NCBI GenBank assembly: GCA_031423015.1
Contig: JANPER010000150.1
Coordinates: 3,330-67,329 of the forward strand
Length of the DNA stretch: 64,000 bases
Origin: Planctomycetota bacterium
Lineage (GTDB): Bacteria; Planctomycetota; UBA1135; UBA2386
Direction: 5' to 3'
Below the pieces are notes generated by a model that saw only the letters and a list, made by a program, of their open reading frames with translations, was not told the origin of the DNA and searched no databases. Below, one piece after another: positions 1 to 52,870 of this stretch (positions within the stretch are counted from its first letter, which is position 1; each line of letters begins with the position of its first letter). The translations under genes were made by a program, and so were the position numbers.

Positions 1-2193
1 GCAGAGTTCCTTGTCGGCGACGACTCGCCATCGTTTAGGCAGTGCGAAGGCGAGCGCGTCGTCGTTCTTGCGCGCGACCAGAAGGCGGAGGCAGCGGCGG
101 TCGAACGGCTGCACGCCTCGGGATTCCGATCGTTGCTCGACACGATTACCCCGAAGGATCAGCACGCGATCCGCCCCCAGCTGGATGCGCACTATTCGCG
201 GCACGACTTGACCCTCAACAAGCTGGTCGCGAAGCCAGACGCCGCTGCCTGGCAAGCGTTCTTGCAGGGCGAACGCGGCGCGCTGGTGGCGGCGGGTTGG
301 CGTGTCGAGATCGATCCGTCGTTCCGGCACGGCACGCTGCAAGCCTCGGCGTGGTTCGTGCGCGCCAAGCCGGTCACGGGAAACGAGTGGTTCGAACTCG
401 AGATCGGCATCGACGTGGGCGAAGAGCGCGTCGACCTCATGCCGATCTTGCTGCACATGATGCGCGCCCCCGACCAGGCCGTGTTCGAGGCGACCTTGGC
501 GCCGGATGACCAGCGGCAGGTCGCGGTCAACCTGGGCGACGGTCGCCGCGTGATGGTGTCGGCGCGGCGCTTACAGAGCATGTTCACCGCGCTGATCGAG
601 ATGCAGGCCGGCGGCAAGGTCGACGGTCAGCGCATGCAGCTGCGACGGTTGCTGGCGCCGCAGGTCCTCGCGCTCGAAGGACAAGTCGACCGCGTCGAGT
701 GGAAAGACGACGGCGCTCTGCGCGAGCTGGCCCAGAAGCTGCGTTCGTTCGACAAGGTGGCCAAGGTCGCCGTGCCGAAGGCGTTGCGCGCCGACCTACG
801 CGCCTACCAGCGCGAGGGTCTGGCGTGGTTGCAGTTCCTGCGCGAGCACGCGCTGGGTGGCATCCTGGCCGACGACATGGGGCTCGGCAAGACGGTGCAG
901 GCGTTGGCGCACATCGCCGTCGAGAAGGCGTCGGGGCGCATGGACCGCCCGTGCCTCGTGGTGTCACCGACCAGCGTCGTGGCCAACTGGGCAGCGGAGG
1001 CGGAGCGCTTCACGCCCGACCTGTCTGTGCTGGTGTTGCACGGCGCGGCGCGCGCGGCGAACTTCAGCAAGCTCGCCGAGGTCGACCTGGTGCTCACGAC
1101 CTACCCGCTGGTGCTGCGCGATCTCGACGTGTTACGCGCGCAGCCGTTTCATCTGCTGATCGCCGACGAGGCGCAGGTGATCAAGAACGCGCGCGCCAAG
1201 GTGGCGCAGGCGCTGCGCGGCCTGGACGCGCGCCATCGCCTGTGCCTCACCGGCACGCCCTTGGAGAACAACCTCGCCGAGCTGTGGGCGCAGTTCGACT
1301 TCCTGATGCCCGGCGTGCTCGGCGACGCGCGGTCGTTCGGTCAGGTGTTCCGCGGGCCGATCGAGCGGGGCGGCGACGACGCGCGTCGCCAGGCGCTGGT
1401 AGCGCGCATTCGGCCGTTCATCCTGCGCCGCACCAAGGCGACCGTGGCGAGTGAGTTGCCCCCGAAGACCGAAGTAGTGCACGCGGTCGAGATCGAGGGC
1501 GCACAGCGCGATCTCTACGAGACGATCCGCTTGTCGGTGCACGAGCGCGTGCGGCAGACGATCGCCGAGAAGGGCCTCGCCCAGGCGCAGATCGTGATCC
1601 TCGACGCGCTGCTCAAGCTGCGGCAGGTGTGCTGCGACCCGCGGCTGGTCAAGCTCGACGCCGCCAAGGAAGTGACCGAGTCGGCCAAGCTCGACGCGCT
1701 GTTCGACCTGCTGCAGCCGCTGGTTGCCGAAGGCCGTCGCATCCTGCTGTTCTCGCAGTTCACCAGCATGCTCGCGCTGATCGAAGCCGAGCTGAGCCAG
1801 CGTGCGATCGGCTTCGTGAAGCTGACCGGCGACACCAAGGATCGCAAGACGCCCGTCGCGCGCTTCCAAGCCGGCAAGGTGCCGGTGTTCCTCATCAGCC
1901 TCAAGGCGGGCGGCACCGGCTTGAACCTCACCGCCGCGGACACCGTGATTCACTACGACCCGTGGTGGAACCCCGCCGCCGAGCAGCAGGCGACCGACCG
2001 CGCGCACCGCATCGGCCAAGACAAGCCGGTGTTCGTGTTCAAGCTCATCGCGTCCGGCACGGTGGAGGAGCGGATCGGACGGTTGCAGGAACGCAAGCGC
2101 GCGCTGGCGGCGGGCATCCTCGATGGCGGCGACCGTCAGGGCGCCGCGCTCACCAAAGCCGACGTCGAGGCGTTGTTCGCGGCGATGGAGTGA
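1..2193 (+). CDS. SNF2-family DEAD/DEAH-box helicase (RapA/HepA-like), 5' end outside the window
   Basis: Frame 1 is open from nt 1, with no stop before the listed ORF start at 133, so the gene is 5'-truncated. Helicase motif I is DDMGLGKTVQ, motif II is DEAQVIKN and motif VI is QATDRAHRIGQ. Stop at 2191-2193. Confidence 0.9.
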   Translation, partial: AEFLVGDDSPSFRQCEGERVVVLARDQKAEAAAVERLHASGFRSLLDTITPKDQHAIRPQLDAHYSRHDLTLNKLVAKPDAAAWQAFLQGERGALVAAGWRVEIDPSFRHGTLQASAWFVRAKPVTGNEWFELEIGIDVGEERVDLMPILLHMMRAPDQAVFEATLAPDDQRQVAVNLGDGRRVMVSARRLQSMFTALIEMQAGGKVDGQRMQLRRLLAPQVLALEGQVDRVEWKDDGALRELAQKLRSFDKVAKVAVPKALRADLRAYQREGLAWLQFLREHALGGILADDMGLGKTVQALAHIAVEKASGRMDRPCLVVSPTSVVANWAAEAERFTPDLSVLVLHGAARAANFSKLAEVDLVLTTYPLVLRDLDVLRAQPFHLLIADEAQVIKNARAKVAQALRGLDARHRLCLTGTPLENNLAELWAQFDFLMPGVLGDARSFGQVFRGPIERGGDDARRQALVARIRPFILRRTKATVASELPPKTEVVHAVEIEGAQRDLYETIRLSVHERVRQTIAEKGLAQAQIVILDALLKLRQVCCDPRLVKLDAAKEVTESAKLDALFDLLQPLVAEGRRILLFSQFTSMLALIEAELSQRAIGFVKLTGDTKDRKTPVARFQAGKVPVFLISLKAGGTGLNLTAADTVIHYDPWWNPAAEQQATDRAHRIGQDKPVFVFKLIASGTVEERIGRLQERKRALAAGILDGGDRQGAALTKADVEALFAAME

Positions 2194-2953: not shown

Positions 2954-3334
2954 TCACGCTCGGCCGCGCATTGCGTCGAGGTAGTCGACCACGGCGACCA
3001 GGCCGGCGGCCGACTCGATGAGCTGAGCCGGAACTCCACCGAGGTGCGTGTTGTTCGCCTCGAGCCACTGGCGACTGTTGTCGCCGCCGCCGCCGAACAG
3101 GGCATCGAGGCTGCGGAACACGCGTACGAACAGCACCGCCAGCTCACCGGCCTTCGACTCGGGATCGAGCGGTCGGCCGCCGCCCAGGCGCGAGACCGTC
3201 GCCTCGCTGATCCCGAGGATGCGAGCGATACGGTTCTGGCGGACGCCGAGGTGCTCGGCGGTGCGCAAGACGGCGCGGGACAAGACGACGCCGGGGTCGG
3301 CTTCTGGTCGCGAACGGGGTCGGGCGGTGAGCAT
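2954..3334 (-). CDS. Xre-type antitoxin with DUF2384-like C-terminal domain (MbcA/ParS-like)
   Basis: The N-terminal HTH-like segment is LGVRQNRIARILGISEATVSRL. The C-terminal segment WLEANNTHLGGVPAQLIESAAGLVAVVDYLDAMRG is typical of DUF2384 antitoxins that neutralise RES toxins. It is the upstream gene of the pair. Confidence 0.8.
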   Translation of the reverse strand: MLTARPRSRPEADPGVVLSRAVLRTAEHLGVRQNRIARILGISEATVSRLGGGRPLDPESKAGELAVLFVRVFRSLDALFGGGGDNSRQWLEANNTHLGGVPAQLIESAAGLVAVVDYLDAMRGRA

Positions 3335-3462
3335 TGCTAGGGAAAGATATCGTCTGTTGGTTGCCCGGGCAAGAGGCCGACTCTACGCCCCAACCACTCC
3401 AGTTGCCGCCGAAAACCCCCGCCCACGGGGGTCTACCGGGCCGCGCCGCTAAGATCGGCTCG

Positions 3463-4449
3463 ATGCGAGCTGGCGCAGACCCTCGTCCCGCTGTGAAACC
3501 CCTCGGCGCCACGCCGCAGCGGCACAGCCTCACCCTGCGGGTGTCGGCGCCCTTCGAGCTGCGCCTGGTGGCGTTCGGGCACGGCTGGATCGACCTGCCG
3601 CCCTTTCGTTGGGACGCCGCACGCAACGCGCTCGCGACCGTGCTCGATCTCGGTACGTCGGTTGGCGCTGTGCCGGTCGACATCGAGATCAGCACCCGTC
3701 GCGACGACCTGTTGCACGTCGACCTCGTCGCGGCGACCACACTGTCGCCCGCGCAGCGCAAACGGGCCGAGCGCGCGTTGCACACCATGCTGCGCCTCGA
3801 TCAGGACCTGGCGCCGTTCTACGCGCTGTGCGCCGAGCACCCGCGTTTGCGTTGGGCGATGGTGCGCGGCGGCGGTCGCCTGCTGCGCGGCGCCAGCGTG
3901 TTCGAGGACCTGCTGAAGCTCTTGTTCACCACCAACTGCTCGTGGTCGGCGACCAAGAAGATGACCGAGCGCACCGTCGAGGCGCTCGGTGAGCGCGCGC
4001 CATCGGGTCGGCCCGCGTTCCCGTCGCCGGCGAAGTGCGCCGACGCGGCCACGTCGTTCTGGCGCCAAGAGGTTCGCGTCGGTTACCGCGACACGGCGTG
4101 CGCGGCGTTGGCCGAGGCGTTCGCCAGCGGCACGCTCACCGAGGCCTGGTTCACCGACCCGGAGGTGCCGACCGATGAGTTGCGCCGACGGCTGCTCACG
4201 CTGCGCGGCGTCGGACCGTACGCCGCCGGCCAAGCGCTTCGCCTGCTCGGTCACTACCAAGACCTGGCGCTCGACTCATGGTGTCGCGCCCGCCTCGCCG
4301 AGCTGCGGGGCAAGAAGAAGCCGCCGAGCGACAAGGCGGTGGCGCGCGAGTACCGCGCGTTCGGCACGTTCGCCGGGCTGGCGCTGTGGCTCGACCTCAC
4401 GCGCGCGTGGCACGACAAAGACGGAGATCGAGCGCCGTTGCAGGCGTGA
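3463..4449 (+). CDS. HhH-GPD superfamily DNA glycosylase (AlkA/OGG-like)
   Basis: ATG at 3463 is chosen inside ORF 3334..4449. The helix-hairpin-helix/GPD-like element is LLTLRGVGPYAAGQALRLLGHYQDLALDSW, with an Asp after the hairpin. It is divergent from the TA pair. Confidence 0.6.
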   Translation: MRAGADPRPAVKPLGATPQRHSLTLRVSAPFELRLVAFGHGWIDLPPFRWDAARNALATVLDLGTSVGAVPVDIEISTRRDDLLHVDLVAATTLSPAQRKRAERALHTMLRLDQDLAPFYALCAEHPRLRWAMVRGGGRLLRGASVFEDLLKLLFTTNCSWSATKKMTERTVEALGERAPSGRPAFPSPAKCADAATSFWRQEVRVGYRDTACAALAEAFASGTLTEAWFTDPEVPTDELRRRLLTLRGVGPYAAGQALRLLGHYQDLALDSWCRARLAELRGKKKPPSDKAVAREYRAFGTFAGLALWLDLTRAWHDKDGDRAPLQA

Positions 4450-8334: not shown

Positions 8335-9519
8335 ATGCCGCGTCCCGTCATCGTCTCTGCCGTCCGCACGCCGATCGGCAAGTTCCAGGGTGGACTCGCC
8401 TCGTTCACCGCGCCGCAGCTCGGTTCTCACGTCATCCGCGAGGCGATCAAGCGCGCCGGCTTGAGCGCCGACGCCATCGAAGACGTGTTGATGGGCTGCG
8501 TTTTGCAAGCTGGTCTTGGTCAGAACCCGGCGCGTCAAGCGCTGCGCGGCGCGGGCATTCCCGACGCGATCGGCGCGGTCACCATCAACAAGGTGTGCGG
8601 CAGCGGGCTCAAGGCGGTGATGCTGGCGGCGCAGGCGATCAAGGCGGGCGACGTCAAGGTCGCGGTCGCGGGCGGCATGGAGTCGATGAGCAACGTGCCG
8701 TACCTGTTGCCGACCGCGCGCAACGGCGCGCGCCTGGGGCACACGCAGCTCCTCGACGGCATCATCCAGGACGGCTTGTGGGACGTGTACAAGGACTTCC
8801 ACATGGGCAACACCGCCGAGCTGGTGGTGGAGAAGTATGGAATCACGCGCGAGCAACAGGACGCGTACGCGGTCGACAGCCATCGCAAGGCGGTGGCGGC
8901 GCAGGCCGCGGGGAAGTTCAAGCGCGAGATCCTCGCCCTGGAGCTGAAGGGCAAGAAGGGCGAGGTCACGCTGATCGACAAGGACGAGGGGCCGCGCGGC
9001 GACAGCACGGTGGAAGCGCTCGCCAAGCTGCGGCCGGCGTTCAAGCCGCAAGGTGGTTCGGTCACCGCCGGCAACGCCAGCTCGATCAACGACGGCGCCG
9101 CGGCGTGCGTCGTGGTCGACGAGGACTTTGCCAAGGCCAACGGCCTGAAGCCCATCGCGCGCATCCTCGGTTACACCACCGGCGGCATGGCGCCGGAGTG
9201 GGTGATGATGGCGCCGATGGTGGCGGTGCAGAAGCTGTGTGCGCTGCTCGCGTGCAAAGCGCAAGACTTCGACGTGGTCGAGTTGAACGAGGCCTTCGCC
9301 GCCCAGTGCGTGGCGCTGCAACGCGAACTCGCGATCGACCCGAACAAGCTCAACGTGCACGGTGGCGCCGTGGCGCTAGGGCACCCGATCGGCGCGTCCG
9401 GCGCACGCGTGCTGACCACGCTGCTGCACGCCATGCAGGATCGCGGCGCGACGCGTGGCCTCGCCGCGCTGTGTCTGGGCGGCGGCAACGCAGTGGCCAT
9501 GGGTGTCGAGCGGATGTGA
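8335..9519 (+). CDS. Acetyl-CoA C-acetyltransferase (thiolase II)
   Basis: N-terminus PVIVSAVRTPIGKFQG. The active-site Cys context is INKVCGSGLKAV, and the C-terminal motifs are NVHGGAVALGHPIGASGAR and CLGGGNAVAM. Confidence 0.95.
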   Translation: MPRPVIVSAVRTPIGKFQGGLASFTAPQLGSHVIREAIKRAGLSADAIEDVLMGCVLQAGLGQNPARQALRGAGIPDAIGAVTINKVCGSGLKAVMLAAQAIKAGDVKVAVAGGMESMSNVPYLLPTARNGARLGHTQLLDGIIQDGLWDVYKDFHMGNTAELVVEKYGITREQQDAYAVDSHRKAVAAQAAGKFKREILALELKGKKGEVTLIDKDEGPRGDSTVEALAKLRPAFKPQGGSVTAGNASSINDGAAACVVVDEDFAKANGLKPIARILGYTTGGMAPEWVMMAPMVAVQKLCALLACKAQDFDVVELNEAFAAQCVALQRELAIDPNKLNVHGGAVALGHPIGASGARVLTTLLHAMQDRGATRGLAALCLGGGNAVAMGVERM

Positions 9520-9713
9520 GTCGAACGAAGATCCGGCGCGCGTACGCAAGGTTGTTGTTGGCGAGGTGTGGCGGCCACGTCGTTCCGTTCCCTTGAAGTT
9601 CTAGACGCGTAATCGACGGCAGGCTCAAGCATCGGGGTGCGGAAGCCGAAGGGTGCTCCGCGAGGGCGAACTTCGCAGGCAAACCCGAAAACCTCCACAC
9701 AGGAGAGGCGCGT

Positions 9714-12509
9714 ATGGACGATCGCATGCTGCTGCAACCATCTCGGCGCGAAGTTTCTCGACGCGCATTTCGGCCATTGATCGGTCACTTCCTGTTGACC
9801 CTGTTGGCGGTGGAGGCCGGCGCTCAGCAAGTGGGGGGCACGGGCTTCAGCAGCGGCCGTGGCTTCTACAACCAGCCACTCGACGTGGTCGTGAGCACCA
9901 GCACCGCCGGCGCAACCGTGCGCTACACGTTGGATGGCAGCGATCCGACGTCTTCGTCGAACTACGCCGAGGGGCTGGCGCCGGCGACGGTGCGTATCGA
10001 TCCTGCCAGCACGAACGGCGTGCTGCGCCGGGTGACACCGGCGGTGACGTTGCGGGCCTACGCCTACAAACAAGGCCTGACACCGAGCGCCGTCGATACG
10101 CAGACTTACGTCTTCGTCGACCGTGTGCTGACCCAGACGCGCCCGTCGGGCTACCCCACCGGTTTCGAGTATGACATGGACGCTGTCGTCGTGAACGACC
10201 CCCGCTACCAGAGTCGTATCCGGAACGACCTGCTGTCGGTGCCCAGCATCTCCGTCGTGACCTCGGTGAACGACATGTTCGGGACGAACAGCTTGATGAC
10301 CGCGTCCGCCAGCTCGATCGAGAAGCCGGGTTCGATCGAAGTCATCCATCCCGACGGCCGCAGCGGCGTGCAGGCGAACTGCGGTTTCAAGCCGCACTCG
10401 CACATCCTGCGCAAGCGCAGTCTGCGAGTGTACTTTCGCGGCGCGGTCTACGGCGTCGGCGCACTCCATCACGACTTGTTCCCAGACGCCGTCGAGGGCG
10501 TGGATGCGCGCGTTCGGCGCTTCGACGTCTTGGTCCTGCGTGCCGGCGTGAACGACAACCTGCAAAGCGCCTTTGACGGGCGCAACGGCCGCGCCACCTA
10601 CGTGGTCGATCAGTTGGCGCGTTCGTCGCAGGCAGCGATGAGCGGTTACGGCCAGCGCGGCTTGTTTGCGCACCTGTACATCAACGGCCTGTATTGGGGC
10701 CTCTACAACTTGGTCGAGCGACCCGACGACGCGTTCTCTGCTGGTCAGTTCGGCGGCGACGAGCGCGACTGGTTCGCGATCAACCACGCTGGCGAGCTCA
10801 GCGGCGACCCCTCCTGGTTCCGCGGGCTGGTCAGCAACTCGTGGGATTGGAACGTGGTGCGGCAGCGCCTCGACTTGCCGTCATTCGCTGATTACATCCT
10901 GTACTACTTCCTGAGTGGCGGCGGCGACTGGCCCGAGAACAACTGGTACGCAGGCAACCGTGTGTTGCCGACGCCCGGATTCGTGCGCTACCACATCTGG
11001 GACATCGAGGACTCGTGGATCCGCATGCCGGGACGCGCCAACGACGGTGCCTGGGTTCACCCGAACTTGATCGCTGGCGCCGGGGACCTGGGCCGCATCT
11101 GGACGAATGTCGACAACCACGTCGACTTCCTCATGGTTTTGGCTGACCGCGTCTACAAGCACTGCTTCAACGACGGCGCGATCAGCGAAGATCAGCTGCA
11201 GGCACGCTACGACCAGTTATGCGCGCAAATCGACGGCGCGGTCGTTCCCGAGTCGGCGCGCTGGGGTCGCTTCAAGGGCGGTGGCGGACGTTGGACCCGC
11301 GACGACGACTGGGTGCCGTACAAGAACTCGGTGCGCAGTCTGATGACGGGCAACGTGCAGAGGTTGCTCGCAGCGCTACGCAACGTGAACGTTCCCTCGC
11401 CCCACCCGAAGTACTACCCCGACGTCGAGCCGCCGCTGTTCCGTAGCGGGGGGATCACCCTGAACCTCACCAAGCTCACGGTGGCGCCGGGCTTCCCGCT
11501 GAGCATCGACCGCGCGTCCAGCAGCGGCACCGTCTACTACACGCTGGACGGCAGCGATCCGCGTGCCCCGGGTGGTGCGGCGCGCGGGACCAATGCCGGC
11601 GCCGGCACCAGTCTCAACGTGAACACGTCGATGATCGTGCACGCGCGCACGCTGCATAACGGTGAGTGGAGCGCGCTGCACGAGCTGGTGTTCCTCGTCA
11701 TGCCGACGCTGCCGCTCGAGATCCACGAGTTCATGGCGGAGAACGACACCGGAATCCGTGACGAGACCGGCCAGTCCGAGGATTGGATCGAGATCTGGAA
11801 CAAGTCGCCGCAGCCGTTCAACATCGGCGGCTACCGCCTGACCGACGACATCCGCGTGCCGACGAAGTGGACGTTCCCGGCAGGGACGACAATCCCGCCG
11901 GGCTCTACGATCCTGGTCTGGGCCGACAGTGAGACGACGCAGGGGCCGCTCCATGCCAACTTCGGGCTGAGCGCCAATGGCGAGTTGGTGGCGCTGTTCG
12001 ACCCGTCTGGTACCGTTCTCGTAGACGGCTTCCCCTTCGGGCCTCAGCTTGGCGACGTCTCAGTCGGTCGCTTGGCGGATGGCGACAACACCTGGGTTGC
12101 GCTGTCTAGCCCGACGCCGCGACGACCCAATCGCGCGAGCCCCTGCGGCCACATCTCCTACCGCAGCGCGGCGCTCTTGCCCGTGGCGGCGTCGCTGCGT
12201 GGCGAGGGCACGGTGATGCCGACCGAGCGGATGAAGATACGCCTCAACGGAGCCGCACCATCCAGTCCGGCGGCGTTGGCGGTCGGCCTGCTCCCGGCGC
12301 ATGCCGAACTCAACGGTTTGGGCACCCTCCTGGTGACGCCGCTCATCGTGGTGCCAGCCACGACCGACGTCGAGGGCAAGGTCACATTCACGGTGTGGCT
12401 GCCCCCAGACCCAAACCTGCGCCATGCCACGATCTTCACTCAAGCAGTGTTCGTCAGCGGCGGGATCGCCGGGCTGTCAGACGCGGTGGCCTCTCGCGTC
12501 TGCCCGTAG
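9714..12509 (+). CDS. Secreted CotH-domain protein with Fn3-associated and lamin-tail (LTD) domains
   Basis: An SD-like aggagagg precedes the ATG. The signal-like segment is LLTLLAVEAGAQQ. The CotH core is HLYINGLYWGLYNLVERPDDAF. Two TVRYTLDGSDP/TVYYTLDGSDP modules are present. The LTD is IHEFMAENDTG...EDWIEIWNKSPQPFNIGGYRLTDD...PPGSTILVWAD. The C-terminal ~90 aa belong to the shared module described in findings. Confidence 0.8.
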   Translation: MDDRMLLQPSRREVSRRAFRPLIGHFLLTLLAVEAGAQQVGGTGFSSGRGFYNQPLDVVVSTSTAGATVRYTLDGSDPTSSSNYAEGLAPATVRIDPASTNGVLRRVTPAVTLRAYAYKQGLTPSAVDTQTYVFVDRVLTQTRPSGYPTGFEYDMDAVVVNDPRYQSRIRNDLLSVPSISVVTSVNDMFGTNSLMTASASSIEKPGSIEVIHPDGRSGVQANCGFKPHSHILRKRSLRVYFRGAVYGVGALHHDLFPDAVEGVDARVRRFDVLVLRAGVNDNLQSAFDGRNGRATYVVDQLARSSQAAMSGYGQRGLFAHLYINGLYWGLYNLVERPDDAFSAGQFGGDERDWFAINHAGELSGDPSWFRGLVSNSWDWNVVRQRLDLPSFADYILYYFLSGGGDWPENNWYAGNRVLPTPGFVRYHIWDIEDSWIRMPGRANDGAWVHPNLIAGAGDLGRIWTNVDNHVDFLMVLADRVYKHCFNDGAISEDQLQARYDQLCAQIDGAVVPESARWGRFKGGGGRWTRDDDWVPYKNSVRSLMTGNVQRLLAALRNVNVPSPHPKYYPDVEPPLFRSGGITLNLTKLTVAPGFPLSIDRASSSGTVYYTLDGSDPRAPGGAARGTNAGAGTSLNVNTSMIVHARTLHNGEWSALHELVFLVMPTLPLEIHEFMAENDTGIRDETGQSEDWIEIWNKSPQPFNIGGYRLTDDIRVPTKWTFPAGTTIPPGSTILVWADSETTQGPLHANFGLSANGELVALFDPSGTVLVDGFPFGPQLGDVSVGRLADGDNTWVALSSPTPRRPNRASPCGHISYRSAALLPVAASLRGEGTVMPTERMKIRLNGAAPSSPAALAVGLLPAHAELNGLGTLLVTPLIVVPATTDVEGKVTFTVWLPPDPNLRHATIFTQAVFVSGGIAGLSDAVASRVCP

Positions 12510-12541
12510 GCAGCATCCGCGGCCGTAACGCTCGGACTCTG

Positions 12542-12997
12542 ACGGGCAGCACCTGCCATTGGCAACACCAGGGGCGGCGCAGAAGCCCCTTGCTGCCCGT
12601 TGCCGAATCCCCTCGCCTGAGAGCGTGAGCGAGAATCGACGCGCCGCAGGCGCGCGGCGCCCATCAGGCGCCCAGGAGGAGAGGCCGCGTGTCGCGGCCG
12701 GCGTGGGGGAGGGTCCGCCTCCCCCACCAGCAAGGAACTCAGCGCGGCAGAGCCGCAACCAACGAGAGGCGAAGCGAGCCGCTCGGCGGCTCTGCCGCGA
12801 GTCATGAGCCGTAAGACGTAAGCCCTAAGGCCCAGACCGCTGTCTGACCGCCTCACCGCCGCCGCCTGTCCGCGTTCTGGACTTACGGCTAACGACTTGC
12901 GGCTCATGACTTTCCACAGCCGAAACATCTTCGCGCTTCGCGAAGATGTTTCGGCTGTGGAACTCAGAGCATGAGCAATTGTTGCTCATGCTCTGAG
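12542..12997. repeat. Chain of eight consecutive inverted repeats (hairpin array) filling the CotH-hbd intergenic region
   Basis: Stems read directly from the DNA are: 12542-12551/12591-12600; 12641-12647/12654-12660; 12683-12689/12693-12699; 12703-12712/12718-12727; 12743-12756/12786-12799; 12800-12815/12896-12911 (1 mismatch); 12912-12935/12939-12962 (24 bp, loop ctt); and 12963-12978/12982-12997 (16 bp, loop ttg). Confidence 0.65.
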
Positions 12998-13034
12998 CTA
13001 GCATGCGCGGCCCGCGCTGCCGTCCGCCAGCCCC

Positions 13035-13898
13035 ATGACCGAGACCCTCCCCAAGAAGATCGCCGTGATCGGCGCCGGCACGATGGGCAATGGCATCGCG
13101 CAGGCCTTTGCGGCGGTCGGCGTGCAGGTCGCGCTCATCGACATCAAGGATGAGTTCGTGCAGCGCGGCCTGAGCGCGGTGCATGGCAGCCTCGCGCGCT
13201 TCGTCAAGAAGGGCACGCTGCCGCAAGCCGACGCCGACGCGACCTTGAAGCGCATCCAGGGCACCACCGCAATGGACGCCGCTGCCGACGCGCAGCTCGT
13301 GATCGAGGCAGTGAGCGAGAACGAGTCGATCAAGCGCGACGTGTTCGCGCGGCTCGACGGCCTGTGCAACAAGGCCGCGATCCTCGCCAGCAACACGTCG
13401 TCGATCTCGATCACCAGGATCGCTGCCGCGACCAAGCGTTCGAGCCAGGTCATCGGCATGCACTTCATGAACCCAGTGCCGCTGATGAAGCTGGTCGAGG
13501 TGATCCGCGGCCAAGACACCAGCGTCGACACCACGGCCAGGGTCGTGGCGTGGTCCAGGTCCATGGGCAAGACTCCGGTCGAGGCGCAGGACTACCCCGG
13601 CTTCATCAGCAACCGCGTGTTGATGCCCATGATCAATGAGGCGGTGTTCTGCTTGATGGAGAACGTGGCCACGCGCGAGGGCATCGACGAGATCATGAAG
13701 CTCGGTATGAACCACCCGATGGGGCCGTTGCAGCTTGCCGACTTCATCGGCCTCGACGTGTGCGTCAACATCCTCGACGTGCTGAAGGACGGGTTGGGCG
13801 ACGACAAGTACCGGGCGTGCCCACTCCTGCGACGCATGGTTGCGGCCGGTCATCTCGGCAAGAAGACTGGCAAGGGCTTCTACGACTACACGACATGA
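13035..13898 (+). CDS. hbd: 3-hydroxybutyryl-CoA dehydrogenase (NAD-binding 3-hydroxyacyl-CoA dehydrogenase)
   Basis: The Rossmann motif is IAVIGAGTMGNGIAQ. Also present are ASNTSSISIT, the HFMNPVPLMKLVEV signature and the C-terminal GKKTGKGFYDY. Confidence 0.9.
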   Translation: MTETLPKKIAVIGAGTMGNGIAQAFAAVGVQVALIDIKDEFVQRGLSAVHGSLARFVKKGTLPQADADATLKRIQGTTAMDAAADAQLVIEAVSENESIKRDVFARLDGLCNKAAILASNTSSISITRIAAATKRSSQVIGMHFMNPVPLMKLVEVIRGQDTSVDTTARVVAWSRSMGKTPVEAQDYPGFISNRVLMPMINEAVFCLMENVATREGIDEIMKLGMNHPMGPLQLADFIGLDVCVNILDVLKDGLGDDKYRACPLLRRMVAAGHLGKKTGKGFYDYTT

Positions 13899-16189: not shown

Positions 16190-17260
16190 ATGCACAACTT
16201 CGCACTTTCCGAAGAGCAACAGATGGTCAAGGAGACCATCGCCAAGTTCGTCGAGGACGTCGCGGCGCAGAAGGCGCTCGACTGCGACGAGCACGCGCGC
16301 TTTGTGCGGCCACAGATCGAGCAGCTCGCCGAGTTGGGCATGCTTGGGCTGCCGATCGCCGAGGCTGACGGCGGCGCCGGTATGGGCTGTGTAGCCACGG
16401 TGGTGGCGCTCGAAGAGATCGCCGGCGCGTGTGGTTCGACGGCGCGCTTGCTGGCTTGTCACGCCGGTGTCTGTGGCGCGGCGCTGGCGGGGTTGCCTGC
16501 TGGCAAGGCGCTGCTCGGTGAGCTGGCGAGCGGCAGCAAGTTGGCGACGTGGATTGGCCCGGAGCACGGCGTGCGCGCCAAGGGCGAAGGTGACGCCGTG
16601 AGTCTAGAGGGGCGCGCCGAGTTGGTGACGGCGTCGACCGAGGCCGATGTGTTCATCGTCGCGGCGAAGGCGGCGACGGGCCATGTGCTCTGTGTGGTGC
16701 AGCGCGCGGCAGTGAAGGCGTCGCCTTCGCGGTCGCTCGGCTTCCGCGCCGCGGCGCCGGGTCGCATCGAGCTGCTCGGTGCGAGCGCCAGCGTGGTGGC
16801 GCGGGGTGCCGACGCGGAACGCGCTGCCGCTGCCGCGCATCTTGGAGCATGCATCACGGCAGCCGCGCTTGCCTGTGGCATGGCGCAGGCGTCGCTCCGC
16901 CTCACCGCGCGCTACGCTGGCGAGCGCATAGCCTTCGGCAAGCCGCTGACGGCGCAGCAGGCGGTCGCGCACAAGCTGGTGGAAGTGCAGCGCAAGATCG
17001 AGTGTGCCCGCCACCTGACCTACCATGCCGCGCGCCTGCAAGACGCCGGCGACGACGCGCGCGCCGCGTCTTTCCGCGCCAAGATGGAAGCGGTCGAAGC
17101 AGCAGTGCTGGCCGCCGACGAGGGCGTCCAGATTCACGGCGGCTACGGCTACGTGGTGGAGTACCACGTCGAGCGTCACTACCGCGACGCCAAGACGCTG
17201 GAAGTGCTGGAGGGCGGTTGCGAGGCGTTGCGCGACCAGTTGGCGTCCCTCGGCGCGTGA
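16190..17260 (+). CDS. Acyl-CoA dehydrogenase family protein (divergent)
   Basis: ATG at 16190 lies inside ORF 16058..17260. The N-terminus FALSEEQQMVKETIAKFVED is typical of ACADs. The C-terminus is IHGGYGYVVEYHVERHYRDAKTLEVLEGG. The middle domain is Ala-rich and less conserved. Confidence 0.75.
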   Translation: MHNFALSEEQQMVKETIAKFVEDVAAQKALDCDEHARFVRPQIEQLAELGMLGLPIAEADGGAGMGCVATVVALEEIAGACGSTARLLACHAGVCGAALAGLPAGKALLGELASGSKLATWIGPEHGVRAKGEGDAVSLEGRAELVTASTEADVFIVAAKAATGHVLCVVQRAAVKASPSRSLGFRAAAPGRIELLGASASVVARGADAERAAAAAHLGACITAAALACGMAQASLRLTARYAGERIAFGKPLTAQQAVAHKLVEVQRKIECARHLTYHAARLQDAGDDARAASFRAKMEAVEAAVLAADEGVQIHGGYGYVVEYHVERHYRDAKTLEVLEGGCEALRDQLASLGA

Positions 17261-17438
17261 GCGTGGCCGAGCGGGCCTCGCGCGTGATCATCACGCTCGC
17301 CAGCTCCACAGCTCTGGTCCGAGGCGACCTCGCCACCCGTTGCGCGGTTTTTCCAGCAAGCCATCCCACCGACCTTGCCGATACACCGAGCGACCGCGTC
17401 GACGCGGCACTTCGTAGTTCGGATCGAGGTTGGCCTGA

Positions 17439-18734
17439 ATGGAACAGATGCTGCTTGGCGAGATCCTCCTCAACTTCCGCTTGGTCTCCAAGGCGGACCT
17501 GGAGCGCTGTCTCGATTTGCAACAGCGGCTCGACCCGCAGCCGATGCTGGGCAGCGTCCTGTTGCAGCAGGGCCTGATCGACGAGAAGGTGCTGGCCACC
17601 GTCCTGTCGGTGCAGAAAGACGAACTCGGGACCAGCTTGTTCGACGACACCAAGTCGAAGCACGACGTGGCGCGCACGCTGGAGAAGGCCACCATCGACG
17701 ACTTCCTGAACGCGTCGCGCCGTCTGCATGCGTCCGACTTGTTCTTGTCGTCTGGCCGGCGTCCGGCCGTGCGTCGCAACGGGCTCGTGTCCGACCTACC
17801 GTCGGGCGTGCTGTCGCTCGAACGCTGCCGCGACCTGTTGTTCGCGCTGCTGACGCCGGAGCAGATCGAGGTCTATCAGCGCGACCGGCAGATTGACGTG
17901 CGAGTGAAGACCGTGCGCGGTCGCTTCCGCCTCAACGTGTTCCGGCACTATGACGGGATCGCTGGCGTGTTCCGCGTGTTGTCCGATGACGTGCCGACGT
18001 TCGAGGGGCTCGGGCTGCCCGAGGCGGTACGCGAGATTGCCGACCTCAAGAACGGTCTGGTGCTGGTTACCGGTCCCACGGGCTCGGGCAAGAGCACGAC
18101 GTTGTCGGCGATCGTCGACCTCATCAACAAGAACCGCAAGCTGCACATCATCACGCTCGAAGATCCGATCGAGCACATCTTCAAGAGCGAGCTGTCGTTC
18201 GTATCGCAGCGCGAACTCAACACCAGCACGACGTCATACGCCGACGCGCTGCGTGCGGCGCTGCGCGAGGATCCCGACGTGATCGTGGTGGGTGAGCTGC
18301 GCGATCCGCAGACCTTCGCGGTGGCGCTCACTGCTGCTGAGACTGGCCATCTGGTGCTCGGCACGCTGCACACCAACAGCGCGTGCAGCACGGTGGTGCG
18401 TGTGATCGACCAGTTCCCCGCCGCGCGACGCGCCCACGTGCGCACCATGATGTCGAGCGTGCTGCGCGCGGTGATCTGCCAAGAGCTGATCCCGAGCGTC
18501 GACGGCGAGAACATGTATCAGGCGGCCGAGGTGATGATGGTCACCCCCGCGGTGTCGAATCTGATCCGCGAAAACCGCGAGTGGCAGATCCCCAACGTGA
18601 TGCAGATGAACCGCACCCGCGGCATGCGCCTGATGGACGAGAGTCTGATGGAGCTGGTGCGCGCCAAGAAGATCTCGGTCGACCAGGCGCTCATGCGCGC
18701 CACCGACCGCTCGCGATTCACCGTCCCCGCCTGA
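17439..18734 (+). CDS. PilT/PilU-type hexameric ATPase with N-terminal MshEN/T2SSE_N-like extension
   Basis: Walker A is GPTGSGKSTT, Walker B DPDVIVVGELRD and the His box GHLVLGTLHT. A PilT-like AVSNLIRE motif is present. An extra ~90 aa at the N-terminus carries two 24-aa repeats (see findings). Confidence 0.85.
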   Translation: MEQMLLGEILLNFRLVSKADLERCLDLQQRLDPQPMLGSVLLQQGLIDEKVLATVLSVQKDELGTSLFDDTKSKHDVARTLEKATIDDFLNASRRLHASDLFLSSGRRPAVRRNGLVSDLPSGVLSLERCRDLLFALLTPEQIEVYQRDRQIDVRVKTVRGRFRLNVFRHYDGIAGVFRVLSDDVPTFEGLGLPEAVREIADLKNGLVLVTGPTGSGKSTTLSAIVDLINKNRKLHIITLEDPIEHIFKSELSFVSQRELNTSTTSYADALRAALREDPDVIVVGELRDPQTFAVALTAAETGHLVLGTLHTNSACSTVVRVIDQFPAARRAHVRTMMSSVLRAVICQELIPSVDGENMYQAAEVMMVTPAVSNLIRENREWQIPNVMQMNRTRGMRLMDESLMELVRAKKISVDQALMRATDRSRFTVPA

Positions 18735-20432: not shown

Positions 20433-20738
20433 GTCGGCATGTGCGTCGCGAGCGCGGTAGGGGCAAGTGCAAACCTGACTCCTCTCAGCGTGGCCGGCGG
20501 CCAGCCAACGTGGCTGATGTCGGCGCAGCGCCACCAGCATCGACCCAGCTTGCTGGGTCGCCAGAGCCATGCCGCGCTCTGGCGCGGCATGGCTCGAGAG
20601 GCCGCCGACGCTGTTGTTTCTGGGTCGCTTCTCTTGCCGCTGCCGCCTACCGAATCTTCGCGCCACGCGAAGAACCGCGGCAAGAGAAGCTCAGCAACAG
20701 AGCTGGCACGCAGCGGACGACGTGCTCCAATCGTGGCG

Positions 20739-24237: not shown

Positions 24238-24310
24238 CCGAGCCGACTCTACGTCGCCGGTCAGCCGGTGAAACAACCGCGGTCGCGTTCTCGTTTGCCT
24301 CGCCCGGGTG

Positions 24311-24331
24311 GCTGTCGCGAATTGCGACAGC
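24311..24331. promoter_or_regulatory. Candidate operator: 8-bp inverted repeat GCTGTCGC-gaatt-GCGACAGC in the divergent hydrolase/NRPS intergenic region
   Basis: Read directly from the DNA. It lies within the 223-bp divergent region 24238-24460. A TAGAAT -10-like hexamer sits at 24457-24462. Confidence 0.3.
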
Positions 24332-24460
24332 ACCAACCCCCGGCGGATCGCCAGCGGATCGCACCCGCGGTCAAGGTCTGCGGCTCCGCGCACCGAACTA
24401 CGATGCGGGAGGCCAGAGTTCGGCCACGTCTCGTGTGGTCGCCGGATTTCTCTGCCTAGA

Positions 24461-29269
<4,809 letters not shown>

Positions 29270-29275
29270 GAATGC

Positions 29276-32200
29276 ATGGCTGAACATCACGCAGGTGACG
29301 GCAGCGCCGCCGCTGATGCGGCCGCGACCGACATCGCCATCGTCGGCATGGCCTGCCGCGTGCCCGGCGCCAACAACGCGCGCGAGTTGTGGGCCAACGT
29401 GCGCGGCAAGGTGGAGTCGATTCGGCGTTACACCGACGACGAACTGCGCGCCGCCGGCGTCGAGGAGGCGCTGCTCGCCAACCCCAACTACGTGCGCGCC
29501 GGTGGCTCGCTCGATGCGATGGAGATGTTCGACGCCGGCTACTTCGGCTTCGGACCGCGCGACGCCGCGATCATGGATCCGCAGCACCGGCACTTCTTGG
29601 AGTGCTGCGTTGAAGCGCTGGAAGACGCTGGCTTGCCGCCGGCGCGCTTCAAGGGCGCGATCGGTCTGTTCGCCGGCTGCGGCATGGGCGCCTACTTCGC
29701 CTACAACATTCTGACGCAGCCCGACCTGCTCGAGAACGTGGGCTTGTTCTTGCTGCGGCACACCGGCAACGACAAGGACTTCTTGGCCACGCGCGCCTCG
29801 TACTGCCTGAACCTGCGCGGCCCGTCGGTGTCGGTGCAGACCGCGTGCTCTACGTCGTTGGTCGCGGTGCACCTCGCCTGCCAGAGTCTGCTGGCGATGG
29901 AGTGCGACATGGCGCTCGCCGGCGGCGTCACCATCGAGCAGCCGCACCGGCACGGCTACTTGTTCAAGGAGAACGAGGTGCTGTCGCCCGACGGACACTG
30001 CCGCGCGTTCGCGGCCGAGTCCAAGGGCACCGTGCTCACCAGCGGTCTCGGTGTCGTGGCCGTGCGCCGCCTGGCCGACGCGCTGCGCGACGGCGATCCG
30101 ATCCACGCGGTGATCAAGGCTACCGCGGTCAACAACGATGGCTCCGGCAAGGTGGGCTACCTGGCGCCGAGCGTCGATGGCCACTCGGCGGTGGTCGCCG
30201 AGGCGTTGGCGCTGTCGGGGATCGACCCGGAGACGATCACGCTGTTCGAAGCGCACGGCACCGGCACGCAGGTGGGCGATCCGATCGAGATCGCGGCCCT
30301 CACCCAGGCCTATCAGGCGCAATCCAAGAAGACGAGCTACTGCGCGATCAGCTCGCTCAAGACCAACATCGGTCACCTCGACACGGCGGCTGGCGTTGCC
30401 GGCTTGATCAAGGTCGCCAGCGCGCTGACCCACAAGGAGCTGCCGCCGAGTCTGCACTTCGACCAGCCGAACCCGATCATCGACTTTGCGACGAGCCCGT
30501 TCTACGTCAACACCGAGTGCACGGCGTGGCCGCGGGGTGCGACGCCGCGGCGGGCGGGGCTGAGTTCGCTCGGCGTCGGCGGCACCAACGCGCACGCGAT
30601 TGTGGAAGAGGCTCCAGCCGCCAAGACGACGGCGTTGGCTGAGCCATGGCAGCTCCTGCTGTTCTCGGGCAAGAGCCAGCGGTCGGCGGAGGGCAACGTC
30701 GAGCGTCTGCGCCAGCACCTGCAAGCGCAGCCGACGCTGAACCTCGCCGACGTCGCGTTCACGTTGGAAAGCGGCCGCGAGGCGCACGTTCAGCGCCGCG
30801 CGTACGCGGTGCGCGATGCAGCGCACGCCGTCGAGGTGTTGCAGAGCAAGGACGCCAAGGTGCTCGCGTCCGGCGCCGCGCAAGAGCGCGAGCCGAGCGT
30901 AGTGTTCATGTTCCCCGGCGGCGGCGCCCAGTACGTGGGCATGGGGCGCGACCTCTACGCGCGCTACCCGGTGTACCGGCAAGCGATCGACCAGTGCCTC
31001 GACGTGCTGCGACCGCTGCTGCCCGAGGATCTGCGCCCGCTGCTTTTCGCGGCGCCGGGCGAGGGCGACGCCGCCGAGCGCATTCAGGGCCCGCTGGCGT
31101 TGCCGGTGTTGTTCGCCACCGAGTACGCCCTGGCTCAGCTGTGGATGTCGTGGGGCATCGAACCCGCAGCGATGACGGGCCACAGCCTCGGCGAGTACAC
31201 CGCGGCGTGTTTGGCCGGCGTCATGTCGCTGCCCGACGCACTCGCGCTGGTACTGCTGCGTTCGCGCCTGCTGACCACGGTGCCGACCGGCGCGGTGCTC
31301 AGCGTGCCGCTGCCGGAGAGCGAAGTGCGACCGCTGCTGGGCGTGGAGTTGTCGCTGGCGGCGGTCAACGGCCCGGAGCTGTGCGCGGTGTCAGGCCCCG
31401 AACACGCAGTGGCGGCGCTCGAAGCCGTGCTCGCCGCGCGCGACGTCGAGGGCCGACGGCTGAAGATCTCGGTGGCCGCGCACTCGGCGATGCTCGACCC
31501 GATCCTCGACGAGTTCCGCGCCGGGGTGCGCAAGATGAAGTTGCAGGCGCCGAAACGTCGCTTCATCAGCAACCTCACTGGAACCTGGGCCGAGGCCAGC
31601 GAGGTGACTTCGCCGGAGTATTGGGTGCGCCACCTGCGCCACACGGTGCGCTTCGCCGACGGCATGGCGACGCTGATGGCCGACAAGCACCGCGTGTTCC
31701 TCGAAGTCGGGCCGGGCACGACGATGTGCACGCTGGCGCGCATGCAGCGCGCCAAGGCCGCCACGCACGAGGTGATCGCCTGCTTGCGGCATCCGCAGGA
31801 GCCGGCCGACGACGTGCAGTTCCTGTTGACGGCGCTCGGGCGCGTGTGGTGCGCCGGCAAGAACCCAGACTGGAGCATGCTGCGCGGCAAAGCGCCGCGG
31901 CGCCGCCTGTCGCTGCCGACCTACGCGTTCGATCACCAGCGTTACTTCATCGAGCCGGGCAAGCGCGCGTTGGCGGGACTCAACACCGACCTCAGTCTGA
32001 CGCGCATCGGCGACGTACGCGATTGGTTCCACCGGCCGAGCTGGCATCCGTCCGCGTTGCCGCCGGGTGGCGTGGCGGCAAGCACGCGCTTCGTGTTGTT
32101 CCTCGACGAGGACGGTCCGGGCGAAGCGCTCGCCGAGAAGCTCGGCACGCGTGGCCACCAGGTCGTGCGCGTGATGCGGGGACCGTCGTTTCAGAGCGTC

Positions 32201-52861: not shown

Positions 52862-52870
52862 AAATGTGAC

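Follow-up and report, generated by a model that had tools for sequence, protein, structure and literature searches.

A hairpin array between a CotH-domain gene and hbd in a Planctomycetota genome, interpreted as a mosaic of small palindromic repeats

The CotH-hbd junction

The intergenic region discussed here occupies positions 12510-13034 of the window, i.e., the whole stretch of 64,000 nucleotides that was analyzed, and lies between a CotH/LTD-domain gene and hbd. From the sequence alone, it had been described as an array of eight abutting hairpins of mutually different sequence. The coordinates and sequences given in that description are right, including the perfect stems at 12912-12962 (24 bp, 3-nt loop) and 12963-12997 (16 bp, 3-nt loop), and so is the local drop in GC content (0.52 at 12900-12999 vs 0.68 for the window). 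The genes and the landmarks revealed by comparison with the closest relative (locus L001) are as follows.

9714-12509, + strand: upstream gene encoding a secreted-type protein with CHB_HEX_C, CotH, and lamin-tail (LTD) domains (open reading frame list, Pfam)
12600-12605, + strand: TTGCCG, -35-like half of an upstream motif conserved in relatives (CGCGTTGCnG-N18-GCTAGCATGC), parted from the other half by the insertion (contiguous motif of relatives)
12617-12621, + strand: CTGAG, left-hand unit of the 5-bp direct repeat flanking the insertion, single in L001 (window/L001 alignment)
12622-12997, + strand: 376-bp block holding hairpins 2-8 and missing from L001 (pairwise alignment, outgroup arrangement)
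12997-13006, + strand: GCTAGCATGC, -10-like counterpart of TTGCCG in the same motif, immediately 3' of the block (alignment of relatives)
13035-13898, + strand: hbd (3-hydroxybutyryl-CoA dehydrogenase), which opens the acyl-CoA operon downstream (Pfam, homologues)

The hbd genes of the window and L001 are 97% identical. The spacer of L001 comprises 150 bp and reads ...CCTGAG/CTAGCATGCG, whereas in the window CTGAG stands on either side of 376 extra bases; due to this repeat, the block boundaries can slide by up to 5 bp. Comparison of the junction in relatives had been proposed as a check, and L001 indeed keeps the CotH-hbd junction, without the block. The motif TTGCnG-N18-GCTAGCAT is contiguous in five related loci, upstream of hbd (L001, L002, and L003) or of a thiolase gene (L004 and L006), and the uninterrupted form common to all of them is therefore the ancestral state. 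Judging from these alignments, the block is an insertion polymorphism with respect to the nearest relative, with the likely consequence that it parts the -35-like from the -10-like half of the old hbd upstream motif. Since the insertion falls between two halves of a motif conserved across related genomes, expression of the hbd operon may be rewired in this lineage. A 24-mer of the motif had no matches in JGI metagenomes.

The CotH gene is not found at this place in related genomes, with thiolase directly adjoining hbd in L004 and L006; it is an acquired gene inserted into an old thiolase-hbd operon. A 73-nt stretch within 12510-12585 is simply non-homologous to L001, and its reading as an inversion of L001 sequence was dismissed, as 53 of 300 shuffles scored equally well. 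Two open reading frames that cross the block (minus strand, 162 aa; plus strand, 82 aa) were likewise discarded: they overlap the end of the CotH gene and are made of hairpin arms.

Folding strength of the array

Folded as RNA and compared with dinucleotide shuffles, the whole region reaches z = -14.0 on the plus strand and z = -11.3 on the minus strand. The predicted structure is thus real on both strands, but its strength is distributed unevenly among the segments.

12510-12621: hairpin 1, z = -0.9
12622-12742: hairpins 2-4, z = -2.0
12633-12733, + strand: GC-rich filler within the preceding segment, with the weak hairpins 2-4 and a sole perfect stem of 10 bp (12703-12727)
12743-12799: hairpin 5, z = -6.3
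12800-12911: hairpin 6, z = -7.6
12912-12997: hairpins 7 and 8, z = -15.6

Segment by segment, only the last four hairpins (12743-12997) go beyond chance, and hairpins 1-3 are what a sequence of 70% GC yields. The eight hairpins of the original prediction thus come down to four strong ones (5-8) and one perfect 10-bp stem, while the remainder belongs to a GC-rich background; the filler bears no similarity to any locus compared. In the minimum-energy fold, hairpins 5-8 abut with zero unpaired bases between them. The stems of the array are very stable (-44 and -28 kcal/mol). Elsewhere in the 64-kb window, two other short-loop hairpins fall below -25 kcal/mol (20564-20595 and 52868-52895), and about 73 kb of relatives' DNA contain no perfect stems of 14 bp or longer. 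As originally noted, the stems all differ from each other and do not form a tandem repeat. Even so, their sequences are not unique, as relatives of three out of the four strong hairpins occur elsewhere.

Repeat families within the block

The block contains representatives of a REP-doublet family, marked by a 12-nt core, and of a dispersed composite element, whose conserved modules are termed M1 and M3.

12621-12632, + strand: GAGCGTGAGCGA, the invariant core of the REP family, present as a solo copy on the left block edge (exact-copy search, family alignment)
12734-12769, + strand: M1 (CAGCGCGGCnnAGCCGCAACCAA), conserved 5' module of the composite element and left arm of hairpin 5 (sequence model)
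12743-12799, unstranded: hairpin 5, an inverted doublet of the M1 core with 14-bp perfect arms CGCGGCAGAGCCGC / GCGGCTCTGCCGCG (folding)
12800-12911, unstranded: hairpin 6, whose 33-nt arms are 85% complementary and make up an imperfect palindrome, located in the variable middle of the M1...M3 element (folding)
12912-12962, unstranded: hairpin 7, a 24-bp perfect palindrome whose inner 16-19 bp (CCGAAACATCTTCGCG-N3-CGCGAAGATGTTTCGG) represent the dispersed M3 hairpin family (pattern search)
12963-12997, unstranded: hairpin 8, a degenerate loop-less inverted REP-core doublet, both arms GAGCATGAGCAA (covariance model R1)
20648-20671, unstranded: second M3 hairpin of the hairpin 7 family (CCGAATCTTCGCGCCACGCGAAGA, the same sequence as in L130, L149, and L173), enclosed by a 14-bp palindrome (20627-20690)

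Both ends of the block are inverted copies of the 12-nt core. Its exact form occurs once in 64 kb (0.08 expected), at the block edge. The pattern GAGCRTGAGCRA-N0-30-TYGCTCAYGCTC is present at no fewer than 120 loci in species-representative genomes, where about 2 would be expected by chance according to a back-of-envelope estimate. These doublets occur in Planctomycetota, Verrucomicrobiota, and other phyla, the core spanning at least six; they are multi-copy in single genomes (e.g., Fimbriiglobus, Gemmataceae, Isosphaera, and Opitutaceae) and may form tandem "+ + (+ -)" arrays (L064, L077, L105, and L114). Throughout an alignment of 64 members, the core is invariant or nearly so, and the flanking stems differ by lineage and are mutually complementary. 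With a core invariant across several phyla and covarying stems, the family seems to be undescribed: a search for the core string in the literature, including the supplements of PMC3733652, returned nothing relevant, and no published consensus matched. In one genome (L105), a RAYT-like open reading frame (3192-3917) is located between repeat arrays of the family; it is similar to NCBIfam REP_Tyr_transpos (E = 2.8e-13), PDB 4er8 TnpArep (E = 0.0018), and Pfam Y1_Tnp (22.9 bits). The RAYT link comes from this one locus, with scores below curated cut-offs. No RAYT gene was detected by tblastn in the 64-kb window. Solo cores with one mismatch, 400-800 bp from doublets in L030, L047, and L054, had been considered as parts of composite elements; as the surrounding sequence consists of long ORF-like stretches devoid of other repeat units, they were judged to be chance matches.

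The affiliation of hairpin 8 is based on the covariance model R1, which was built from 64 family doublets. The model assigns 31.5 bits (E = 4.4e-8) to positions 12955-13005, on a scale where clear family members reach 42-72 bits and degenerate ones 21-38 bits; the next match scores 17.5 bits, and 73 kb of relatives contain none. Hairpin 8 is by this match an inverted doublet of the REP type, and the block has the extragenic location of REPs, between the stop codon at 12509 and the start codon at 13035. Both arms are two CpG transitions away from the consensus, and the outer 4-5 bp pair with the CTGAG junction repeat. The window copies depart from the family in several respects. Members carry complementary 4-6 nt on each side of the core (CCGG-core-CCGG, CCAC-core-GTGG, CCCG-core-CGGG, and so on), whereas the window has CTGA-core-GAAT and CTCA-core-TTGT. 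The GTAG/CGTC tag is absent: CTAG (minus strand) and, on the left, CGCC stand where most members have GTAG, GTGG, or GCGAG. Finally, family members of other genomes are flanked by no target duplication, while the window block has its 5-bp direct repeat.

The M1 model (R2), derived from 11 metagenome or viral-collection contigs with the window excluded, recovers the window copy with 26.6 bits (E = 2.3e-7; next match 12.5 bits). The inner-stem pattern of hairpin 7 was encountered at 59 metagenome loci in 44 distinct contexts, among them L170, which is identical to window 12926-12954 at 27 of 29 positions. M1 is also present in 14 of these 59 loci, either 121-149 nt upstream of M3 or inverted about 53 nt downstream, and at least eight unrelated metagenome contigs share both modules in the same order and orientation. 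An M1...M3 element is defined here as M1 upstream of an M3 hairpin, in the same strand order and 50-230 nt apart; the spacing is 176 nt in the window (12740 and 12920), 121-149 nt at other loci, and about 230 nt in L166. In the alignment, the ends are conserved and the middle is without homology. Neither the outer 8 bp of hairpin 7 nor the right arm of hairpin 5 falls within the conserved modules. M1 is absent from 837 kb of REP-core loci, and scans of viral contigs gave one match each for M1 and M3. The composite element seems to match no description in papers or Rfam. Among complete genomes, the families occur, e.g., in OY970367.1, LR594585.1, and GCA_041398565.1.

Hairpin 6 had been characterized as a 16-bp imperfect inverted repeat delimiting a 112-bp element; the coordinates stand, the arm length does not, and the element status is unconfirmed, since neither copies nor relatives of this hairpin were found in the window or any locus searched. 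Its outer 12 nt bear a weak resemblance to the REP core (GAGTCATGAGCC; REP model 9.1 bits only). An integron attC site at 12800-12911 was discarded by eye, as the RYYYAAC / GTTRRRY cores are absent. Searched with up to 3 mismatches, the arms of hairpins 6, 7, and 8 have no copies in the 64-kb window save the left-edge core. The other 63.6 kb contain no further copy besides the second M3 hairpin, which sits in another hairpin cluster. A BLAST search of the block against plasmids and phages gave GC-rich noise only.

Origin of the array and its relation to known systems

The array is best explained, with a probability of roughly 0.7, as a BIME-like mosaic of small non-coding palindromic repeats (of the REP/REPIN/BIME kind) that accumulated at one intergenic spot. 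As in BIMEs, several kinds of units are combined over a short distance: a solo core (+), an M1 doublet, an M3 hairpin, and a core doublet (+ -) within 376 bp. The suggestion of stacked REP/MITE-like elements is borne out in that hairpin 8 and the left edge belong to the REP-doublet family, hairpins 5 and 7 to a second dispersed element, and the block is polymorphic with respect to L001. Its sources are at least three families that occur in many other bacteria, so that it represents an ordinary kind of genomic parasite.

In this reading, the block was inserted between the two halves of the conserved hbd upstream motif, and its boundaries are the inverted REP cores, i.e., the solo copy at 12621 and the degenerate doublet of hairpin 8. 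Inside it, a second composite element contributed hairpin 5 (from M1), hairpin 7 (M3), and hairpin 6 (the variable middle). In the proposed mechanism, hairpins that such elements form in single-stranded DNA would be substrates for RAYTs, HUH tyrosine transposases with genes elsewhere in the genome, which would cut and join them. Existing hairpins might draw in further insertions, and the spacer-free succession of units from different families would be accounted for in this way. Arm-to-arm copying probably created or maintained the symmetry of the two perfect palindromes: the arms of hairpin 8 share two substitutions, and its stem reaches into the target sequence. At the 3' end of the CotH transcript, stable stems are likely able to protect from 3' exonucleases and to hinder read-through. 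Like the parting of the upstream motif, such transcript effects would be side effects and not the reason for the existence of the array.

A single MITE moved by a DDE transposase, with the internal hairpins as cargo, is an unlikely identity for the block (373-376 bp in this reading). Its terminal inverted repeats would be GAGCGTGAGCGAGAAT / GAGCATGAGCAACAAT and its target duplication 5 bp (CTGAG) or 3 bp (TGA). The block ends are inverted with 13 of 16 positions matching, a direct repeat flanks the block, and an empty site exists in L001, relative to which CTGAG (or TGA) is duplicated, so that both terminal inverted repeats and a target-site duplication are present. The 3-bp version fits the IS1031 group of the IS5 family, members of which prefer TNA and make a 3-bp duplication (PMC12016507). 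An IS5/IS1031-type MITE was nevertheless rejected: although the TNA rule fits, the ends proved to be the REP-family core. Typical members of that family carry additional, outer stems flanking the core, lack a target duplication, and in one genome flank a RAYT-like gene, not a DDE gene. Moreover, the block interior is itself built from another dispersed element and has no second copy in 185,579 representative genomes (0 matches of a hairpin-7 20-mer), the window, or the compared loci; neither several whole copies nor a parent IS with the ends of the block were found there. The notion that the perfect palindromes arose in place and not from inserted elements, when template switching or fold-back priming accompanied replication or break repair, is the least credible. 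Hairpins 7 and 8 are indeed perfect and abutting, with 3-nt loops, and the shared substitutions of the hairpin 8 arms, together with a stem that takes in 4-5 bp of the target, point to arm-to-arm copying after insertion. Yet local sequence did not give rise to the arms, which are homologous to dispersed families and for which the window has no local source; such a process can explain only why the stems are perfect, not where the array came from.

It is quite improbable that 12734-12962 (M1 to M3) constitutes a small RNA gene or a cis-regulatory RNA with a 5' hairpin, a variable middle, and a terminator-like 3' hairpin. Conserved ends with a variable middle across unrelated contigs, very stable stems, and the A run before and T run after the stem in many M3 copies (GAAAATCTTCGCG...CGCGAAGATTTTC), resembling a bidirectional terminator, are in line with it. 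On the other hand, no T run follows the M3 stem of the window copy, the middle shows lack of homology instead of covariation, the element stands in either orientation to neighboring genes with M1 on either side of M3, and it is absent from L001, the flanks of which are 97% identical. The Rfam scan that had been suggested (Rfam 15) gave no match at the gathering score in the complete window and none with E of 1 or less in 12400-13100; generic microRNA-precursor hairpins were the only matches, far below threshold. Nothing was found in 24 loci carrying related elements, including 12 with the M1...M3 element, and the structured RNA is thus not upheld. Very improbable, too, is an array kept by selection as a transcriptional insulator or mRNA-stabilizing 3' structure between the CotH gene and the hbd operon. 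The array sits exactly between the gene inserted into the old thiolase-hbd operon and the remainder of that operon, its stems are extremely stable, and transcription termination and mRNA stabilization are among the roles hypothesized for REPs (PMC3733652). However, L001 has the same junction without the block, so that the gene order does not depend on it; the conserved upstream motif is broken up by the block, not maintained, and the parts of the block are members of selfish repeat families. It also has no U tracts: intrinsic terminator sites are absent from 12510-13034 (the single match is a minus-strand site within hbd), scans of the spacer for promoter and terminator consensus sequences returned nothing, and the proposed terminator array is not supported, as no stem is followed by a T run.

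The mosaic of palindromic repeats is compatible with what is known of REPs. They are present in Planctomycetes and Opitutus, GTAG-tagged families have been described in Opitutus terrae and Rhodopirellula baltica, several families can share one genome, and the units of a dimer can be only 1-2 bp apart (PMC3733652). Like the REP/REPIN-RAYT system, the family consists of short extragenic palindromic units, mostly inverted doublets that form one long hairpin, with many copies per genome, tandem clusters, an outer GTAG (or GGCGAG) tag in most members, and a RAYT-like gene flanked by family repeats in one genome. Unlike that system, its core remains invariant over at least six phyla while the stems vary; furthermore, the window copies are degenerate, without unit stems or an inner stem and with CTAG for GTAG, and the 376-bp block that they delimit is accompanied by a 5-bp direct repeat, a feature not normally produced by REPs. 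Enterobacterial BIMEs are similar in that palindromic units of alternating orientation and other short conserved motifs fill an intergenic region, but the present mosaic mixes at least three unrelated families with unassigned sequence, in a Planctomycetota genome. With MITEs of the IS1031 group, the block shares its size of a few hundred bp, imperfect terminal inverted repeats starting with GAG, and a possible TNA (TGA) duplication, and differs by the lack of a parent IS or a second whole copy in the searches and by its REP-core ends.

If the mosaic reading holds, no special RNA or regulatory device is needed for the locus any longer: the hairpins would be recent repeat-element debris. Both families could mark RAYT activity and intergenic turnover in Planctomycetota, Verrucomicrobiota, and soil bacteria. 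A further conjecture, which we consider doubtful, is that M1 and M3 are not chance neighbors but form an undescribed mobile intergenic module, and that the core GAGCGTGAGCGA is the recognition loop of one spreading RAYT lineage. The 5' end of such a module may consist of a small hairpin and AACCAA, and its 3' end of the A-run/stem/T-run hairpin with a GTAGTACAGAG-like arm, the middle being hairpin-rich and freely replaceable; it may bring a terminator at one end and, at the opposite end, a promoter that reads outward. The core, invariant from Planctomycetota to Acidobacteriota, may then belong to a RAYT lineage that spreads horizontally.

Putative mobile promoters are repeated promoter-bearing intergenic modules. 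The window copy of M1 is unlike them in that it points away from any gene, whereas in L127 and L159 the reverse complement of M1 is promoter-like (TTGCGG-16-TATGCT, followed by a ribosome-binding site and ATG, as a pattern match only).

An inserted block in the CotH-hbd spacer

A spacer of 525 bp separates the CotH/LTD-domain gene (9714-12509) from hbd (13035-13898). It folds far more stably than its dinucleotide shuffles (+ strand, z = -14.0; - strand, z = -11.3). The original prediction filled it with eight hairpins; the segment-wise test upholds hairpins 5-8, where the folding excess lies, while hairpins 1 and 2-4 stay at chance level for DNA of 70% GC. The coordinates proposed for the two perfect palindromes (12912-12962, 24 bp; 12963-12997, 16 bp; both with a 3-nt loop) are exact, and the local fall in GC is real (0.52 over the two). 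Strong short-loop hairpins are rare in the rest of the window and in ~73 kb of related DNA.

Spacer segments and their z-scores in the segment-wise shuffle test
12510-12621, hairpin 1, z = -0.9
12622-12742, hairpins 2-4, z = -2.0
12743-12799, hairpin 5, z = -6.3
12800-12911, hairpin 6, z = -7.6
12912-12997, hairpins 7 and 8, z = -15.6

Judged by the hbd protein, the window comes from a Planctomycetota lineage that is uncultured. The closest relative found, locus L001 (GCA_031419195.1, hbd 97% identical), has the same CotH-hbd junction with a spacer of merely 150 bp. In a clean alignment, window positions 12622-12997 (376 bp, hairpins 2-8) have no counterpart there: the block is an insertion polymorphism. 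The L001 junction reads ...CCTGAG|CTAGCATGCG..., and the window carries CTGAG on each side of the extra DNA. This repeat is compatible with a staggered-cut duplication at block entry, with microhomology or, by analogy with IS200/IS605-type transposition, with insertion 3' of a pentanucleotide that would also end the element. The junction surroundings constitute a conserved upstream motif, CGCGTTGCnG-N18-GCTAGCATGC, which is unbroken upstream of hbd in L001 and the related loci L002 and L003, and upstream of the thiolase gene in the related loci L004 and L006, where thiolase directly precedes hbd. The unbroken motif therefore represents the ancestral state; in the window, the insertion drives its halves apart. 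A 9-bp repeat, GGAACTCAG, at 12734-12742 and 12959-12967 brackets hairpins 5-7 and may mark a nested event; it is not relied on, because its left copy shares sequence with the conserved 5' flank of the M1 motif described below. Separately, the 73 nt right after the CotH stop (window 12513-12585, L001 1061-1133) are non-homologous between nearly identical flanks; an inversion as their origin was tested and ruled out.

A REP-core family and its degenerate copies in the window

The left end of the block, GAGCGTGAGCGAGAAT, matches the reverse complement of its right end, GAGCATGAGCAACAAT, at 13 of 16 positions. A pattern derived from the termini of hairpin 8, with transitions allowed (GAGCRTGAGCRA-N0-30-TYGCTCAYGCTC), finds at least 120 loci in 185,579 representative genomes, against ~2 by chance according to our own rough estimate. 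The matches listed are long hairpins of 60-80 nt, many per genome, in hosts including Gemmataceae, Fimbriiglobus, Isosphaera, Phycisphaerae, Opitutaceae, Akkermansia, Abditibacteriaceae, Blastocatellia, and others. Across 64 aligned members, little or no variation is seen in a 12-nt core (GAGCGTGAGCGA) and its complement, while the 4-6 nt flanking each core and the outer stems vary by lineage yet stay complementary; GTAG, GTGG or GGCGAG stands at the outer end of most members. Single units also form tandem arrays closed by an inverted unit, '+ + (+ -)', and no target duplication is seen in the flanks of members elsewhere. In the loci L099 (1813-2034), L087 (2188-2395) and L105 (2957-3917), core units are arrayed head to tail, with eight units at a 30-bp period in an Opitutia MAG and three doublets at a 78-bp period in an Akkermansia MAG.

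In L105, from a Verrucomicrobiales MAG, two arrays enclose an ORF that bears HUH and Y motifs. The ORF scores best against the model of REP-associated tyrosine transposases (RAYTs), below the curated cut-off (E = 2.8e-13), against E. coli TnpArep in the solved structure 4er8 (E = 0.0018) and against Pfam Y1_Tnp (22.9 bits, cut-off 23). The family is thus linked to a putative RAYT-like gene at one locus in one genome, with sub-threshold scores. Its anatomy of doublet hairpins, arrays and a RAYT-like ORF is that of REP/REPIN elements with RAYTs. GTAG-tagged REPs are known from Opitutus terrae and Rhodopirellula baltica (PMC3733652); the GAGCGTGAGCGA core matched no published consensus in the literature searched, and the family has no match in Rfam.

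In the window, the block's left edge holds the single exact copy of the core (12621-12632; expected 0.08 per 64 kb). A covariance model built from 64 doublets matches hairpin 8 (12955-13005) with 31.5 bits and E ~4e-8, a rough value as the models are home-made; the next match in the window scores 17.5 bits, and ~73 kb of relatives give none. For comparison, scores range from 42 to 72 bits among clear family members and from 21 to 38 bits among degenerate ones. With a solo core on the left and a doublet on the right, the block shares its layout, '+ ... (+ -)', with clusters elsewhere; however, 334 nt separate solo unit and doublet here, compared with 29-79 nt there, and the window units are degenerate, lacking unit stems and the inner stem and carrying CTAG instead of GTAG. 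In hairpin 8, both arms contain the same two CpG transitions and the stem takes in 4-5 bp of the CTGAG junction repeat, which suggests that, once inserted, one arm served as the template for making or correcting the other.

The M1...M3 composite element

The apex of hairpin 7 resembles a hairpin apex at 20648-20671, in the second hairpin cluster of the window, which lies within an 880-bp intergenic region.

Second hairpin cluster (window 20541-20690)
20541-20560, 9-bp hairpin
20564-20595, 14-bp perfect hairpin
20627-20690, 14-bp perfect outer stem around the M3-family hairpin at 20648-20671

A metagenome scan with a pattern from hairpin 7, CCGAA-N0-3-TCTTCGCG-NNN-CGCGAAGA, finds this hairpin family (M3) at 59 loci in 44 distinct contexts, where ~1 is expected by chance (again our own rough estimate). 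Many extend to GAAAATCTTCGCG...CGCGAAGATTTTC, with outer arms similar to GTACTACTA and GTAGTACAGAG; one locus (L170) is identical to window 12926-12954 at 27 of 29 positions. The co-occurrence of a second motif is stronger evidence than this count: M1, the left arm of hairpin 5 (CAGCGCGGCnnAGCCGCAACCAA), is present at 14 of the 59 loci, 121-149 nt upstream of the M3 hairpin or, inverted, ~53 nt downstream, and does not occur in 837 kb of REP-core loci. Eight aligned copies, including the window, share conserved 5' and 3' modules around a non-homologous, hairpin-rich middle; a ninth copy is found in one IMG/VR contig. An M1 model built with the window left out matches 12734-12769 (26.6 bits, E = 2.3e-7; next 12.5 bits), which together with the M3 match makes window 12734-12962 a further copy of the composite. 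Hairpin 5 is M1 doubled, the inner part of hairpin 7 is M3, and the variable middle is taken up by hairpin 6. No relatives in any sequence searched are found for hairpin 6, for 12633-12733, for the right arm of hairpin 5 or for the outermost 8 bp of hairpin 7.

In the loci L127 (~1700-1765, minus strand of the hairpin) and L159, the reverse complement of M1 has the placement of a promoter (TTGCGG-16 nt-TATGCT or TATATG), with a ribosome-binding site and an ATG ~40 nt downstream; the M1 repeat may carry an outward promoter. Short-repeat runs (CACAGAG, CACGGAT) surround the element in L134, L140, L162 and L179.

Origin of the array and its neighborhood

The array is a striking and real structure, and probably (probability roughly 0.7) a mosaic of palindromic repeat elements resembling a BIME. 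The earlier suggestion of stacked REP-like elements is supported: of the four strong hairpins, three show homology to families dispersed in other genomes. That the block is one DDE-type MITE is unlikely: the block agrees with the TNA duplication rule known for the IS1031 group, but its ends are the core of a REP family, other members of which show no duplications, and neither a second copy nor a parent IS is found in the sequences searched. A functional RNA, also proposed originally, is similarly unlikely, given that neither the window nor 12 loci carrying the composite have an Rfam match, the orientation of the composite varies, and the nearest relative lacks the block. Since L001 keeps the same gene order without it, selection of the array as an insulator is unlikely too, and the terminator array once envisaged is not supported, as a terminator scan finds no spacer stem followed by a T run. 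Least probable are palindromes generated on the spot, which would account for the perfection of the stems but leave the origin of the arms unexplained.

Under the mosaic reading, the units would be non-autonomous, folding while the DNA is single-stranded and depending on HUH tyrosine transposases for their movement. Hairpins already in place would draw further insertions, yielding abutting units of different families; dimers in published REP families are separated by as little as 1-2 bp (PMC3733652). Arm-to-arm copying would then make the stems perfect. As likely side effects, the block keeps the halves of the hbd upstream motif apart and gives the CotH message a 3' end with very stable stems. 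The window repeats are further members of an already known kind of element; the core, invariant across phyla, and the M1...M3 composite merit separate study.

The thiolase-hbd junction is a hot spot of gene insertion (window 8335-13898; L002 3712-7784; L003 1637-5290; L004 8817-10867; L006 8764-10867). The two genes adjoin in L004 and L006; in the window a CotH-like gene stands between the two, as it probably does in L001 (a short contig with the gene's 3' end only), and a Kelch-repeat gene on the opposite strand does so in L002 and L003. The GCTAGCATGC motif lies upstream of thiolase in L004 and L006, and of hbd in the window, L001, L002 and L003. L002 and L003, two metagenome contigs, are 97-99% identical in coding DNA, while their intergenic DNA is wholly non-homologous and of very different length at two places (L002 3308-3658 vs. 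L003 1505-1584; L002 6261-6856 vs. L003 4182-4362); wholesale intergenic turnover thus seems common in the clade. Elsewhere in the window, two very long ORFs (1653 and 2155 aa; 24308-35743) occupy the place of multi-domain AMP-binding/PKS genes in related loci and probably represent an NRPS/PKS cluster, and a tRNA gene (52787-52858) is directly followed by a 12-bp G+C-rich hairpin (52868-52895). In L004, two identical 13-bp hairpins (GCTGGCGATCGCGttCGCGATCGCGAGC; 16912-17016), 77 bp apart, stand beside an IS110-family transposase gene (17328-18416).
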